From the NCBI GenBank assembly GCA_000217635.1, contig CP001817.1, positions 412,926-444,925 on the forward strand: DNA of 32,000 nucleotides. Reading direction: 5' to 3'. The position numbers were made by a program, and so were the translations under genes. Below are positions 159 to 30,898 of the stretch, piece by piece. This stretch comes from Candidatus Saccharimonadota bacterium. GTDB taxonomy: Bacteria > Pseudomonadota > Gammaproteobacteria > Enterobacterales > Enterobacteriaceae. Under the pieces are notes generated by a model. It was not told the DNA's origin and searched no databases. It worked only from the letters and a program-made list of their open reading frames with translations. Positions within the stretch are counted from its first letter, which is position 1. Every line of letters starts with the position of its first letter.

Positions 159-573
159 ATGTTAATTATAGCCTTTGATTACGGGATAAAAAACATTGGC
201 ATAGCAATTTCTGAAACAAAGTTATTATACGCACAGCCTATTTGTACAATTAAAAATAAAAATTGGCTTGAAATAGATAAAATTATTAAAATTTGGTTAC
301 CATTGTTAATAATTGTTGGATATCCAATAGACATGAATGGAAAAAAACAAAAAATTACAAAAAAAAAGTTGATAAATTTTGTAATCAACTAAAAAAAGAT
401 ATAGTATTCCAATTATTATACATGATGAACGACTTACTACAATTGAAGCTAAATCAGTTATCTTTCAAAAAGGTGGGTATAAAGCTTTAGAAAAAACATG
501 TATTCATTCAACTGCAGCAAAAATTATTTTAGAAAGTTGGTTAAAAACTCAATATAAAAAAACAATTAAATAA
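159..573 (+). pseudogene. ruvX: YqgF/RuvX-family nuclease (putative Holliday-junction resolvase / pre-16S rRNA nuclease), broken by two same-direction frameshifts
   Basis: ORF 159..392 aligns to the E. coli YqgF N-terminus (AFDYGIKNIGIA ~ AFDFGTKSIGVA; IIVGYPIDMNG ~ IIVGLPLNMDG). The alignment continues as VDKFCNQLKK in a second frame, then as RYSIPIIIHDERLTTIEAK...AAKIILESW in a third frame, ending at TAA 571..573. The frame switches fall at A9 359..367 and A7 391..397. Confidence 0.8.
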
Positions 574-763
574 ATAATAATTAATTTTTTAAATAATAAA
601 AAAATTAATTATTCAATATAATTAATATTATATTATTATAATGTAATATGTAAATGTTCCGGTACAATAACTAACTTAACAATAAGTTATGTATCCCAAC
701 ATAAAAAAATTTATAAAATATAAATATATTAATAAAATTTATATTTCATATATTAAAAAACCT

Positions 764-1463
764 TTATAATTTATAAATATATTCAAATATTATATTACCT
801 AAATTGATTCCTCGTTTTTCATAATTTGTTTGATATGAGAAATATTTTTGATTACATTTTTTATGTATATTAATTCTTTTAAAAAAATTATATTTTAAAA
901 AATTTTTTTATATGATAAGCATAAGAAAGACAATCTGTTTTAATATATATTATACCATTAGTCATTAATTTTTTAGATAATAACTTAATAAATACATCTG
1001 TTATTATTCTTCTTTTATGATGTTTTCGTTTAGGCCAAGGGTCAGGAAAAAAAATTTGTACCATAGTTAATATCTTGTTAGGAATCATATATAAAAAAAC
1101 ATCAATAGCATCATAATTTATAATTTTAATATTATTAATATTATATAAATTAGCATATTTTATATTAGATAATATACCAGGAAAATAAACTTCAATACCT
1201 AAAAAATTTATATTAGGATAATATTCGGCTTTTTTAACAAAATATTCTCGCGAACCAAAACCGATATCTACAATAATAGGTTTATTATTTTCAAATATAT
1301 CTTGTAAGGATATATAATTATTTGTATATGTAATTCCAAATTGCGCCCATAATTTCTGTATGATATTAGAGGAATTTAAAAAATTTGTTTTTCTATATCT
1401 TAATACATAACTTTTTGTTTTATAATTAGTATGAAACAGTTGAAAATTAAAACAATCTTTCAT
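764..1463 (-). CDS. trmB: tRNA (guanine-N7)-methyltransferase TrmB, C-terminal ~45 codons displaced by one frameshift
   Basis: The core matches E. coli TrmB (VDIGFGSREY ~ LEIGFGMGAS; VQIFFPDPWPKRKHHKRR ~ VQLFFPDPWHKARHNKRR). The likely start is ATG 1463, with AGGAAG 6 nt upstream. The track start at 1553 is a TTG that overlaps the mutY start. The conserved tail TNYEKRGINLGNIIFEYIYKL (~[23 protein letters not shown]) is open in another frame down to TAA 764..766. The switch lies inside the A7T6A4 tract at 893..909. Confidence 0.8.
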
Positions 1464-1538
1464 TATCATCTTCCTAAAATAATTAATTAAATTAATATAA
1501 TCAATAATTATTTTTAAAAATATATAAGAGATATATTT

Positions 1539-2582
1539 ATGATTTTTTCGCAAAAAATTTTAAATTGGTATCACAATAATGGACGTAAAAATCTTCCGTG
1601 GAAAAAAAATAATAATATATATTATATTTGGATTTCTGAAATTATGTTGCAAAGAACACAAGTTAAAAAAGTAATTCCTTATTATATAAAATTTATAAAA
1701 AATTTTCCTACTATAAAAATATTATTAAAAAATCCAATTGAAAAAATATTATATTTTTGGAGTGGATTAGGATTTTATCAAAGGGTACATAATATATATA
1801 AAACTGCTCATATCATACAAAAAAAATATCAAGGAAATTTTCCTACTACGCTTCCGGAAATAAAAAATTTACCGGGCATTGGAAAAACTACAGCTCATGC
1901 TATTTTATCCTTTTCTAAAAATTATTGTTATCCAATATTAGATTCTAATATTAAACGTATATTATTACGATATTATTTTTCTACTAAAAAAAAATTTTAT
2001 TTTCTGAAAAAAAAACTATGGAATATAATTAATCAATTAATTCCCGTACATTATGCTGAAAAATTTAATCAAGGTATGATGGATCTTGGTGCCTTGATTT
2101 GTCATTATAAAAATCCTGAATGTTTATTATGTCCATTAAAAAATCAATGTAACTATTATAAAACAAAACAATCAAATATTGAAAAATTATTTATCAAAAA
2201 GTTTTCGAAAAAAAAAATTGGCATGACTTTTATAATATTAAACTATAAAAACTTTATTTTATTACAAAAACAAAAAACACAAAAATTTTGGAAATCTTTA
2301 TTTTGTTTTCCGATTCATTACTTTTCTATTACAGATAATATATGGAAAAATATAAAAAATATAAAAAATAACGTATTTAAAATTATACCTCCTTTTATTC
2401 ATCACTTTAGTCATATAAAATTATATATAACTGTATGCTTAATACCAATTAAAAAAAACAAAATAAAAATAAATCTTCAAAAAAAAGATCTCTGGTATGA
2501 TATATTTTGTCCTCCAAAAATTGGAATACCTTCACCGGTTTCTAAAATTATTACAATTATTAAACAATACGGAAATAAAATT
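1539..2582 (+). CDS. mutY: A/G-specific adenine DNA glycosylase MutY, with no stop codon before yggX
   Basis: [17 protein letters not shown] and the 4-Cys Fe-S motif [17 protein letters not shown] align with E. coli MutY. The C-terminus [15 protein letters not shown] aligns with GLAAPVERLLQQL. The frame then runs directly into the yggX ATG at 2583. Confidence 0.85.
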
Positions 2583-2821
2583 ATGAAAAAAATAAAACCT
2601 CGCACTATTTTTTGTACATTTCTAAAAAAAGAAGCTTTAGGATTGGATTATCCATTTTATCCTGGCGAAATAGGAAATAAAATATATAATGAAATTTCTC
2701 AAGAAGCATGGCAACATTGGATAAAAAAACAAACAAAAATTATAAATGAAAAAAATTAAATATGTTTTTAGAAGATGATAGAAAAAAACTAGAAAAAGAA
2801 ATGATAAAATTTTTATTTTAA
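2583..2821 (+). CDS. yggX: Fe(2+)-trafficking protein YggX, in frame with mutY and with a 3' frameshift
   Basis: [43 protein letters not shown] aligns with E. coli [39 protein letters not shown]. The ORF stops at 2757..2759. The tail [21 protein letters not shown] (~[21 protein letters not shown]) continues in another frame to TAA 2819..2821. The switch is at A7 2749..2755. Confidence 0.85.
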
Positions 2822-29031: not shown

Positions 29032-29050
29032 TAAGCTTTTTAAGCTTATT
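29030..29050 (+). terminator. Hairpin overlapping the hscA stop codon (aataagctt / ttt / aagcttatt)
   Basis: A 9-bp perfect stem with a 3-nt loop is followed by T-rich sequence (tattattattaatttt). Confidence 0.4.
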
Positions 29051-29146
29051 TATTATTATTAATTTTAATTAATATATAATTTATATTTATTTTTAATAAA
29101 TTTAAAAATATATTTAATATTAAAAAATTATTGGAGATTCATATTT

Positions 29147-29488
29147 ATGCCTAATATATTTTTTTACCCTCAAAAATTTATACTTCCAAATGGATTATCT
29201 GTTATAGCTTCTTCAGGAAAATCTATTTTAGATGTTGCATTAGAAAATAATATTCCTATGGAACATGCTTGTGAAAAATCATGTGCTTGTTGTACGTGCC
29301 ACTGTATTATTAGAAAAGGTTTTGAATCATTATCTAAATGTTTAGAAGCAGAAGAGGATCTTTTAGATAAAGCCTGGGGATTAGAAAAATATAGTCGTCT
29401 AGGATGTCAAGCAAGAATTGGAAAAGAAGATATTGACGTTGAAATTCCATTATATAGTGTTCATTATATAAATGAAATGAAAAAATAA
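29147..29488 (+). CDS. fdx: [2Fe-2S] ferredoxin of the ISC system
   Basis: [25 protein letters not shown] and [18 protein letters not shown] align to E. coli Fdx ([43 protein letters not shown]). GGAG lies upstream of the start. Confidence 0.95.
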   Translation: [113 protein letters not shown]

Positions 29489-29500
29489 TTATAGATATAA

Positions 29501-30898
29501 TTATTTTTTATTATAGTAAGGATTATAGCTATTTTTAAAAAATAATCGGATGGGTGTACTAGGTATTTGCAATGCTTTTTGTAAAAAATTTATTAAATAT
29601 TTTTTATAAGAACGAGTTAAAAATTGAGTTTGTGTTCCATGAATAATAATAAGAAATGGATTTTTTCCACCTAAATGAGCATATTTTAAACGAATTGCTT
29701 TTCCTGTAACACCCATCGGTATAGGATGTTTTTTTATTGCTAAATTAATTAATTTCGTTAAATATGATGCAGAAAAATTTCTTATAGATTGATAGTAAAC
29801 TTCGTTAGCAATTTTAAAAAATCTTTTAAACCAGTATTCAATAAAGAAGAAACAAAAAATTTTATTATTTTTAATAAAATGTAAACGCTGTAAAATTTCT
29901 TCTTTTACTTTTTTTCGATTTATTTTCTTTATTAAATCCCATTTATTAATAATAACATAAAATGACTTACCTTTTTTATATACAGTATTTAATATAAATA
30001 AATCTTGTGAACAAACGTATAATGATGCATCTAAGACTACGATAGTAATATGACTAATTTTGATTTCGTTCATAACTTTAAGCATAGAAATATGCTCAAG
30101 AAGATTATTTTTTTTTGTTTTTCTTCGTAAACCTTCAGTATCTGTTAAAATATAACTTTTATCTTTATGTTTTATAATAGAACGAATAATGCCTCGAGTA
30201 GTATTTTCTTTATGATGAACAATCATGCGATTTTTTTTTAAAATTCTATTAATTAAACTTGATTTTCCAACGTTTGATTTTCCAGTAATACAAATTTTAA
30301 TATCTATATCATCTATTGTATTTAATATATTTTTCGAAATTTTATTATTTTTTTTCTTTTTTTCAATTTCTAATTGTTTAAAATTTAAAGATTTTTTATA
30401 AGTTTTATAAAAATTCTTTAAAAAATCATGAATCCCCGTACGATGCATAACAGATATTTTATATATTTCATATATTCCTAAGTCATAAAAATCTAGTAAA
30501 TTATTAAAATTTTTTAATAAATCTACTTTATTGATTAATAAAAATATTTTTTTGTTTTCTAATCGTATTTTTTCTAAAATAAAATATTCAGTATTAGTTA
30601 AACCTACTTGTATATCTACCATAAAAAAAATAAATGTTGACTTTCGGATTGCCAATATAGTTTGAGAATATATTTGAAAATATAAGTTATTAGATTTTTT
30701 GTATTTTGGATCTAAAATTTCAATTCCAGCTGTATCAATTAAAAAAATTTTTTTGTTTATATAGAAAAAATTATAATTTCTATCTCTTGTTGTGCCTGGT
30801 ATAGAATTTACTAAAGCAATATTAGAATCTGTTAAAAAATTAAAGAAACTAGATTTTCCGACATTTGTACGTCCTATTAAAGTAATAATGGGTGTCAT
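29501..30898 (-). CDS. der: GTPase Der (EngA), double GTP-binding domain, with one compensated frameshift pair
   Basis: Both G1 motifs are present (GRTNVGKSS and GKSNVGKSS). GTTRD, DTAG, NKVD/NKWD and the C-terminal LKYAHLGGKNPFLIIIHG...YKKYLINFL...PIRLFFKNSYNPY align to E. coli Der. Confidence 0.9.
   Translation of the reverse strand: MTPIITLIGRTNVGKSSFFNFLTDSNIALVNSIPGTTRDRNYNFFYINKKIFLIDTAGIEILDPKYKKSNNLYFQIYSQTILAIRKSTFIFFMVDIQVGLTNTEYFILEKIRLENKKIFLLINKVDLLKNFNNLLDFYDLGIYEIYKISVMHRTGIHDFLKNFYKTYKKSLNFKQLEIEKKKKNNKISKNILNTIDDIDIKICITGKSNVGKSSLINRILKKNRMIVHHKENTTRGIIRSIIKHKDKSYILTDTEGLRRKTKKNNLLEHISMLKVMNEIKISHITIVVLDASLYVCSQDLFILNTVYKKGKSFYVIINKWDLIKKINRKKVKEEILQRLHFIKNNKIFCFFFIEYWFKRFFKIANEVYYQSIRNFSASYLTKLINLAIKKHPIPMGVTGKAIRLKYAHLGGKNPFLIIIHGTQTQFLTRSYKKYLINFLQKALQIPSTPIRLFFKNSYNPYYNKK

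Follow-up and report, generated by a model that had tools for sequence, protein, structure and literature searches.

Frame-restoring pairs of single-base indels in repeats, together with unpaired indels at the 3' ends of genes, have been described between two Blochmannia genomes (Williams and Wernegreen 2013, PMC3622351), where three pairs were found per 791-kb genome, each within 20 bp and in fast-evolving genes, and were verified by two technologies. Another described class comprises Buchnera and Blochmannia genes that are rescued by slippage (Tamas et al. 2008, cited by bioRxiv 10.1101/2022.08.28.505559 and PMC5009743); in these cases, poly(A) frameshifts occur in single long tracts, are conserved among strains and are followed by a conserved downstream frame. 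Homopolymer errors of 454 pyrosequencing form a third comparison: they lie in A/T runs, rise steeply with run length, produce apparent frameshifts in conserved genes and are absent from the short-read assemblies of close relatives, and other endosymbiont projects have corrected 454 drafts with Illumina data for such errors (PMC3622351; PMC4122931). Here we analyze a 32,000-nucleotide (nt) stretch of contig CP001817.1 (positions 412,926 to 444,925 of the forward strand; hereafter, the window), in which A/T runs that differ by a single base from the expected length, ~25 in all, affect about a dozen of the ~30 genes, many of them as closely spaced groups that keep the open reading frame (ORF) open around a wrong-frame patch. 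Most of these frame breaks are probably wrong A/T-run lengths that arose in a pyrosequencing-era assembly followed by ORF-guided finishing, and are absent from the organism.

The breaks share with 454 errors their restriction to A/T runs, their steep length dependence, their occurrence in conserved genes and their absence from the short-read assemblies of close relatives, but differ in being clustered, frame-restoring and stop-free, and the platform used for this genome is one that we infer. The window resembles the Blochmannia genomes in having both frame-restoring single-base pairs in repeats and unpaired 3'-end indels, yet it holds six frame-restoring clusters within 32 kb of unverified sequence, 22–100 nt across and lying over catalytic motifs, and its pairs do not fall within the 20-bp spacing criterion of PMC3622351. 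Poly(A) frameshifts with a conserved downstream frame are likewise a feature of slippage-rescued genes. In contrast to those genes, however, the window's breaks are mostly in frame in relatives, many lie in short runs and the interior ones are paired, so that only the 5' tract of hscA resembles the known slippage-rescued kind.

The window has a G+C content of ~20–23% and carries, in order, ruvX, trmB, mutY-yggX, sbcB, tRNAs, dut, rplI, rpsR, rpsF, miaA, orn, hslVU, zapB, fpr, an orphan ORF, dapF, tRNAs, rho, trxA, rep, ilvC, ilvD, iscS, iscU, hscB, hscA, fdx, der and yfgM. Its Rep ORF is 100% identical to WP_041750229.1/AEH39950.1 of Buchnera aphidicola (Cinara tujafilina), the Rep protein cluster containing these two NCBI entries only, and its MutY-YggX ORF of 406 amino acids (aa) is identical to a protein of the deposited 444,925-bp Buchnera (C. 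tujafilina) genome. The wrong-frame patches are therefore present in the deposit itself, which several papers cite as CP001817.

Frame changes were located with our own protein-to-DNA dynamic-programming aligner, which allows 1- and 2-nt frame changes, together with DNA alignments and tblastn. The references were Escherichia coli K-12 orthologues and closer Buchnera lineages, the latter found by protein searches and contig look-ups: SRR21069242 (loci L011 and L016; ~73% Rep identity; hereafter, the sister), a Logan assembly of a Sequence Read Archive (SRA) run that we take to be Illumina; a second lineage (L012/L013; 76% Rep identity); SRR33594963 (L014; 66% Rep identity); and the lineage from C. 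splendens (L015). When genome contigs were scanned with IlvC, the only matches were distant Buchnera (64% identity), too remote for tract comparison. Distant references make the frameshift aligner over-call: C. splendens dapF and hscA yielded many spurious shifts, those in hscA partly because its coordinates were not a multiple of three. Our calls rest on close relatives, and E. coli was used only for unambiguous patches.

Pairing and clustering of the frame breaks

Every site corresponds to a one-base difference in A/T-run length in DNA alignments with relatives, and the frame changes at unpaired sites were reproduced by tblastn. The original prediction, made from the sequence of the window, had listed 21 sites. 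Frameshift-aware alignment confirmed 19–20 of them, with the breaks in ruvX, trmB, yggX, sbcB, miaA, rep, iscS, hscA and der reproduced against both E. coli and closer relatives, and corrected two; it also added sites that had been missed in hscB (27469–77), at the end of iscU (26846), in the 5' part of hscA (a third site) and in sbcB (two more events). The interior clusters that restore the frame are as follows.

7898–7960, minus strand: miaA, +1 in coding-strand T9 (7952–7960) and −1 in coding-strand A9 (7898–7906)
20446–20486, minus strand: rep pair 1, −1 at 20482–86 and +1 at a 10-mer, 20446–55 (9 in a relative)
20134–20170, minus strand: rep pair 2, +1 at 20164–70 (7 versus 6) and −1 at 20134–39 (6 versus 7–8)
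27520–27623, plus strand: hscA 5' cluster, A10 (9 or 12 needed), A7 (6 in the sister) and A9 at 27615–23 (8 in the sister)
28765–28815, plus strand: hscA middle pair, −1 in A7 (28765–71; A8 in the sister) and +1 in A9 (28807–15)
29816–29872, minus strand: der pair, with events at ~29854–72 and ~29816–27

Between the members of each cluster, the deposited gene reads in the wrong frame. The 15-codon patch in miaA hides the P-loop FLMGPTAIGKS. In rep, each +1 run (A10 versus A9; A7 versus A6) is matched by a −1 change ~30 nt away, and the ancestral frame reads NLLVRTRWQ across the patch of pair 1 and KKLFSTLAYG across that of pair 2. The corresponding ancestral sequences are KNQTGFCINIFQGE for the hscA middle patch and FFVSSLLNTGLK for the der patch, which lies in the second GTPase domain. 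Two corrections concern hscA. What had been described as a plus/minus pair at 27520–29 and 27583–89 is a set of three +1 events, the third in the A9 at 27615–23, with a net change of +3 and ~33 codons out of frame, including GIDFGTSY; and the partner of 28807–15 is the A7 at 28765–71 instead of 28795–99. A further candidate +1/−1 pair in mutY (1977–1999, plus strand; FLLKKNF versus FCLKKNF in the sister) was not counted, as an in-frame extra codon fits about equally well.

Event frequency rises with tract length: 2 of 219 5-mers (1%), 3 of 142 6-mers (2%), 7 of 76 7-mers (9%), 1 of 41 8-mers and 10 of 30 runs of at least 9 (33%) carry an event. All events map to A/T runs, 10 of them in runs of at least 9 and 13 in runs of 5–8. 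Sixteen of the 23 events have a neighbor within 70 nt, whereas 3.2 would be expected, or 5.0 within affected genes only, when events are redistributed over tracts of equal length class (P ≤ 1e-4). Six of the seven clusters (miaA, two in rep, hscA 5', hscA middle and der) restore the frame, for which we calculate a chance of ~0.04 under random signs; the cluster in ruvX does not. A small sbcB pair (4330–36 with 4309–12) also qualifies as a compensatory pair in the sense of PMC3622351, like those six, while ruvX again fails. Pair spacing is ~22–64 nt, and the hscA 5' cluster spans ~100 nt. Off-frame stops occur at 0.10–0.14 per codon in the affected genes (about one per 8 codons), and all wrong-frame patches, at 10–33 codons, are stop-free, with a joint chance of ~1e-6 to 1e-5.

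Random errors independent of one another do not account for the interior breaks, in agreement with the original prediction that their pairing is non-random. The combination of clustering, frame restoration and stop-free patches means that an ORF-preserving filter acted on the paired sites. Since natural selection and ORF-guided correction predict the same geometry, other evidence must decide between them.

Unpaired breaks and conservation of the ancestral frame

The remaining sites are unpaired breaks, most of them close to a gene terminus, and genes left split.

359–367 (A9) and 391–397 (A7), plus strand: ruvX (yqgF), two same-sign shifts, giving three frames, uncompensated
~881–909, minus strand: trmB, unpaired shift in an A7/T4/A6/T7 cluster, ~40 codons ahead of the stop
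2749–2755, plus strand: yggX part of the mutY-yggX fusion ORF, A7 versus A8 in the sister (−1)
3436–4445, minus strand: sbcB, five events (4431–4445; 4330–4336 with 4309–4312; ~3968–3990; 3436–3442)
8760–8774, plus strand: orn, a probable break, with the ATG at 8760 out of frame across A9 (A8 needed)
26363–26369, plus strand: iscS, unpaired −1 in A7, 31 codons ahead of the normal stop, with the tail conserved in the other frame
26846–26857, plus strand: end of iscU, TAA versus TAT (Tyr) in relatives, adjoining A8; 5–6 residues short
27469–27477, plus strand: hscB, A9 versus AAAAGAAAAA in the sister (−1), ~15 codons ahead of the stop

Conservation extends through these breaks. The middle patch of ruvX, KKVDKFCNQL, matches KKVDKFCNHL of the sister's intact 133-aa protein at 9 of 10 residues, and in the post-shift tail of trmB, TNYEKRGINLGNIIFEYIY, 17 of 19 residues agree with the sister. 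The yggX site is flanked by ~25 nt on each side that are identical to the sister, and the −1 change shortens the mutY-yggX ORF to 406 aa instead of 424–433. All three sites that had been proposed in sbcB were recovered, though the gene carries five events; its segments combined are 69% identical to the sister's intact 479-aa SbcB. An apparent in-frame stop in sbcB (4315–4317) was considered as a sign of a true pseudogene and ruled out, because the codon falls inside the +1/−1 patch formed by 4330–36 with 4309–12. The break proposed for orn at 8766–74 is only probable: the ATG is out of frame as described, but an in-frame TTG at 8749 keeps the ORF open. The end of iscU could reflect either a substitution or a 1-nt event.

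Frameshift-aware alignment detected no breaks in fdx, ilvC, ilvD, trxA, rho, dapF, fpr, zapB, hslU, hslV or rpmE. This upholds the earlier list of unaffected genes for fdx, ilvCD, trxA, rho, dapF, fpr and hslVU, but not securely for iscU, with its possibly altered end at 26846. A pair of shifts 7 nt apart in the orphan ORF and another pair in the control look like aligner noise at 45–63% identity and were set aside.

Long tracts are as numerous in the sister as in the window (20 versus 18 tracts of at least 9 in shared genes), and the sister's ruvX (133 aa), trmB (234 aa), mutY-yggX (427 aa), sbcB (479 aa), rep, iscS, hscB and der are intact. When two sister lineages were compared with each other using the same aligner and the same penalty, there were 0 shifts in der, hscA, hscB, iscS and rep; the window has 13 in these genes. 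Relatives are in frame at the sites in rep, iscS, hscB, the hscA interior, der, yggX, ruvX and sbcB, the exception being hscA 5' in L011. Comparison of tract lengths with sister lineages places the breaks in this genome only, hscA 5' excepted.

The ancestral frame is fully conserved beneath these breaks. Read in that frame, the patches are identical to the sister at 52 of 64 residues (81%), compared with 72% for the in-frame remainder, and the tails past the unpaired breaks in iscS, yggX, trmB and hscB are conserved as far as the normal stop. The patches overlie the P-loop of MiaA, two parts of HscA (the GIDFGT motif and a conserved block, FTTFKDGQTAMSIHVMQGE, or FKDGQT...QGE) and a segment of the Der GTPase that is also conserved, and the remainder of the patched genes shows purifying selection. 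Because the ancestral frame is undecayed, all of the events would, if real, have to postdate the split from the sister by far. Where genes of this genome do decay, the picture is another one. The dut ORF (5004–5426, minus strand) is open and free of frame breaks, yet looks degenerate through substitutions at catalytic motifs: conserved Asp residues are replaced (GLDLRA to GLYLRT, IDSDYQG to IKTLYEG), the protein lacks the GGFGHSG motif at its C terminus, and it scores 65 in NCBIfam, below the cut-off of 103.

Explanations for the frame breaks

The geometry of the paired sites could relate to real, recent indels, produced by slippage at A/T runs without mismatch repair, in which the surviving events were compensated nearby or lay at 3' termini and ruvX and sbcB are fresh pseudogenes. 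Clustering, the six frame-restoring clusters and the stop-free patches fit such a history, compensatory pairs and 3'-end frameshifts between the two Blochmannia genomes, whose homopolymers were Illumina-checked, provide a precedent (PMC3622351), and no mutL ORF of at least 50 aa is listed beside miaA. However, all of the ~25 events, spread over 25 kb of coding sequence, would have to be very young, the conservation of the patches matching or exceeding that of the surrounding gene, whereas in two sister lineages with equally many tracts not one such event became fixed in these genes during far longer periods. MiaA and HscA would have lost catalytic motifs while the rest of each gene remained under purifying selection, the patches are 10–33 codons long as against Blochmannia pairs within 20 bp, and the actual decay of dut took another form. 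We therefore consider it unlikely that the deposited lengths are correct and record a burst of recent indels in which rep, hscA, der and miaA were rescued by second-site indels 10–33 codons away and ruvX, iscS and others came to depend on slippage. A quite improbable variant is that the frameshifts are real and function is kept through RNA polymerase slippage, or ribosomal frameshifting, at A/T runs. Slippage of bacterial transcription has been documented at the length that several sites reach, runs of 9–10 (ruvX, orn, hscB, hscA 5', miaA and rep) (PMC5009743); in four lineages the hscA 5' tract measures 10–13 nt, and two of these have it out of frame; and conserved poly(A) frameshifts in other Buchnera have been annotated as functional by curators (bioRxiv 10.1101/2022.08.28.505559). 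Many sites are only A5–A7, though, and paired sites would need two slips per transcript where the faithful transcript is already an open ORF; moreover, the frameshifts other than hscA 5' are not conserved in relatives, and conservation was the curators' criterion for rescued genes. The original prediction had suggested that the pairing fits real compensatory evolution with slippage rescue, but genome-specific breaks, an undecayed ancestral frame and catalytic motifs inside the patches speak against it as the main explanation. Slightly less probable still is that homopolymer miscalls arose at random and independently, were never edited and formed pairs only by coincidence: length dependence and restriction to one genome fit sequencing error, but the clustering (16 of 23 events with a neighbor where three to five are expected), the excess of frame-restoring clusters and the stop-free patches do not. 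Homopolymer-length error, which the original prediction had named as the trivial alternative, is thus favored, but its simple form fails for the paired sites, and a step of ORF-guided correction must be added.

In the explanation that we favor, assembly error plus ORF-guided finishing, the pyrosequencing consensus would have mis-measured long A/T runs, for which the evidence is indirect. An interior error would split a gene and confront an annotator with two overlapping ORF pieces, which may then have been merged by altering a nearby ambiguous run that gave an uninterrupted ORF. If the altered run was not the faulty one, two opposite errors would be left, enclosing a wrong-frame patch without stops. 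Near 3' ends, an error would cost few residues and could have gone unflagged (iscS, hscB, trmB and yggX), and ruvX and sbcB would have been left split. Consistent with this, 454 FLX and Titanium runs were used in the same laboratory for bacteriocyte DNA of C. tujafilina, the co-resident Serratia being later Illumina-polished (PMC4122931), and a 2011 sister genome by the first author of the genome paper was produced with 454 reads, Sanger joins, a Gap4 assembly and an Artemis check of start and stop codons (PMC3213167). The Buchnera (C. tujafilina) genome was presumably made by the same 454 route. We infer both the sequencing platform and that editing, by people or by software, acted as the filter instead of natural selection. 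Correlated pyrosequencing errors (incomplete extension and carry-forward) were also considered as a cause of the plus/minus pairs and rejected on reasoning, because such effects span a few flows, not 30–60 nt, and would not leave patches stop-free.

Several observations weigh against assembly error plus ORF-guided finishing. Some events lie in short runs (A4–A6), where consensus pyrosequencing errors are uncommon, and the independence of errors from each other and from the reading frame that is expected of 454-type error was not found. Exact-protein look-ups (Rho with two starts, and HslV) returned no second assembly of the same strain in the collections searched. Natural selection predicts the same near compensation, stop-free patches and unpaired shifts at 3' ends, and this geometry is recorded in the sequence-verified Blochmannia genome pair (PMC3622351). 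Furthermore, the hscA 5' poly(A) tract measures 10–13 bases in four lineages (window, 27511–27545; L011, ~3555–3600; L014, ~3600–3640; L015, ~3545–3580). It is in frame as A13 in C. splendens, needs a GTG start to be in frame in L014, and is out of frame with the only ATG in both the window (A10) and the SRA-run-derived L011 (A11). This single tract may be a genuinely slippery start region.

Other features of the window and implications

The mutY-yggX genes (1539–2870, plus strand) form a single continuous ORF with no stop between them. MutY-YggX fusions of 424–433 aa, with HhH-GPD, NUDIX_4 and Iron_traffic domains, occur in the closest relatives and in several other Buchnera lineages, and to judge from these sequences the fusion looks real and conserved. 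In Rep, a run of eight Ser (FSSSSSSSLTLL; ~20770–20800, minus strand) replaces the three or four found in all relatives and constitutes an in-frame 12-nt simple-repeat expansion. Very long coding homopolymers that are in frame in the deposit lie in rep (19205–19219; 15 nt), orn (9210–9221; 12 nt) and sbcB (3861–3871; 11 nt), with further runs of 11 in dapF (16258–16268), iscS (25524–25534) and hscB (27112–27122). Such runs would be the first places to seek length errors or transcriptional slippage.

Upstream of miaA in E. coli lies mutL, directly adjacent. The miaA-orn spacer of the window (7982–8748) has a G+C content of 12% and no ORF of at least 50 aa, no search for mutL remnants having been made, and mismatch repair appears to have been lost in this genome. 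An orphan ORF (13623–14879, minus strand) encodes 418 aa at 27% G+C and has no Pfam or NCBIfam match; three relatives have a counterpart at the same position, flanked by dapF and fpr (L011, 415 aa, 63% identity; L014, 431 aa; L015, 299 aa), and these likewise lack a domain match. Between the tRNA cluster and dapF, cyaY (frataxin) is present in L014 (14661–14990) and L015 (14441–14776), with no such ORF in the window (16355–16620) or L011. The dapF gene is a single ORF of 281–282 aa in the window and C. splendens, and is represented by pieces of 35 aa and 224–231 aa in the SRA-run-derived Logan loci L011 (14534–15381) and L014 (15115–15962), which may carry a break of their own near its 5' end.

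The frame breaks are most likely not a biological system but the mark of a flawed reference sequence. Assemblies of other Buchnera from Cinara have been scaffolded on CP001817 (bioRxiv 10.1101/086223), and nr and UniRef contain its proteins, wrong-frame patches and truncated ends included; both the reference genome and these database proteins probably carry many homopolymer errors. With about a dozen of the window's ~30 genes affected, the whole genome probably needs polishing. Wrong-frame patches that leave the ORF open evade frameshift checks and can mimic rapid local divergence or positive selection. If the breaks are errors, their recognition is of practical value and has no bearing on the biology of the organism. 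If the tract lengths were true, on the other hand, the window would represent an unusually dense natural case in which a reduced genome evolved through compensatory frameshifts, packed roughly 100 times more densely than those described in Blochmannia.

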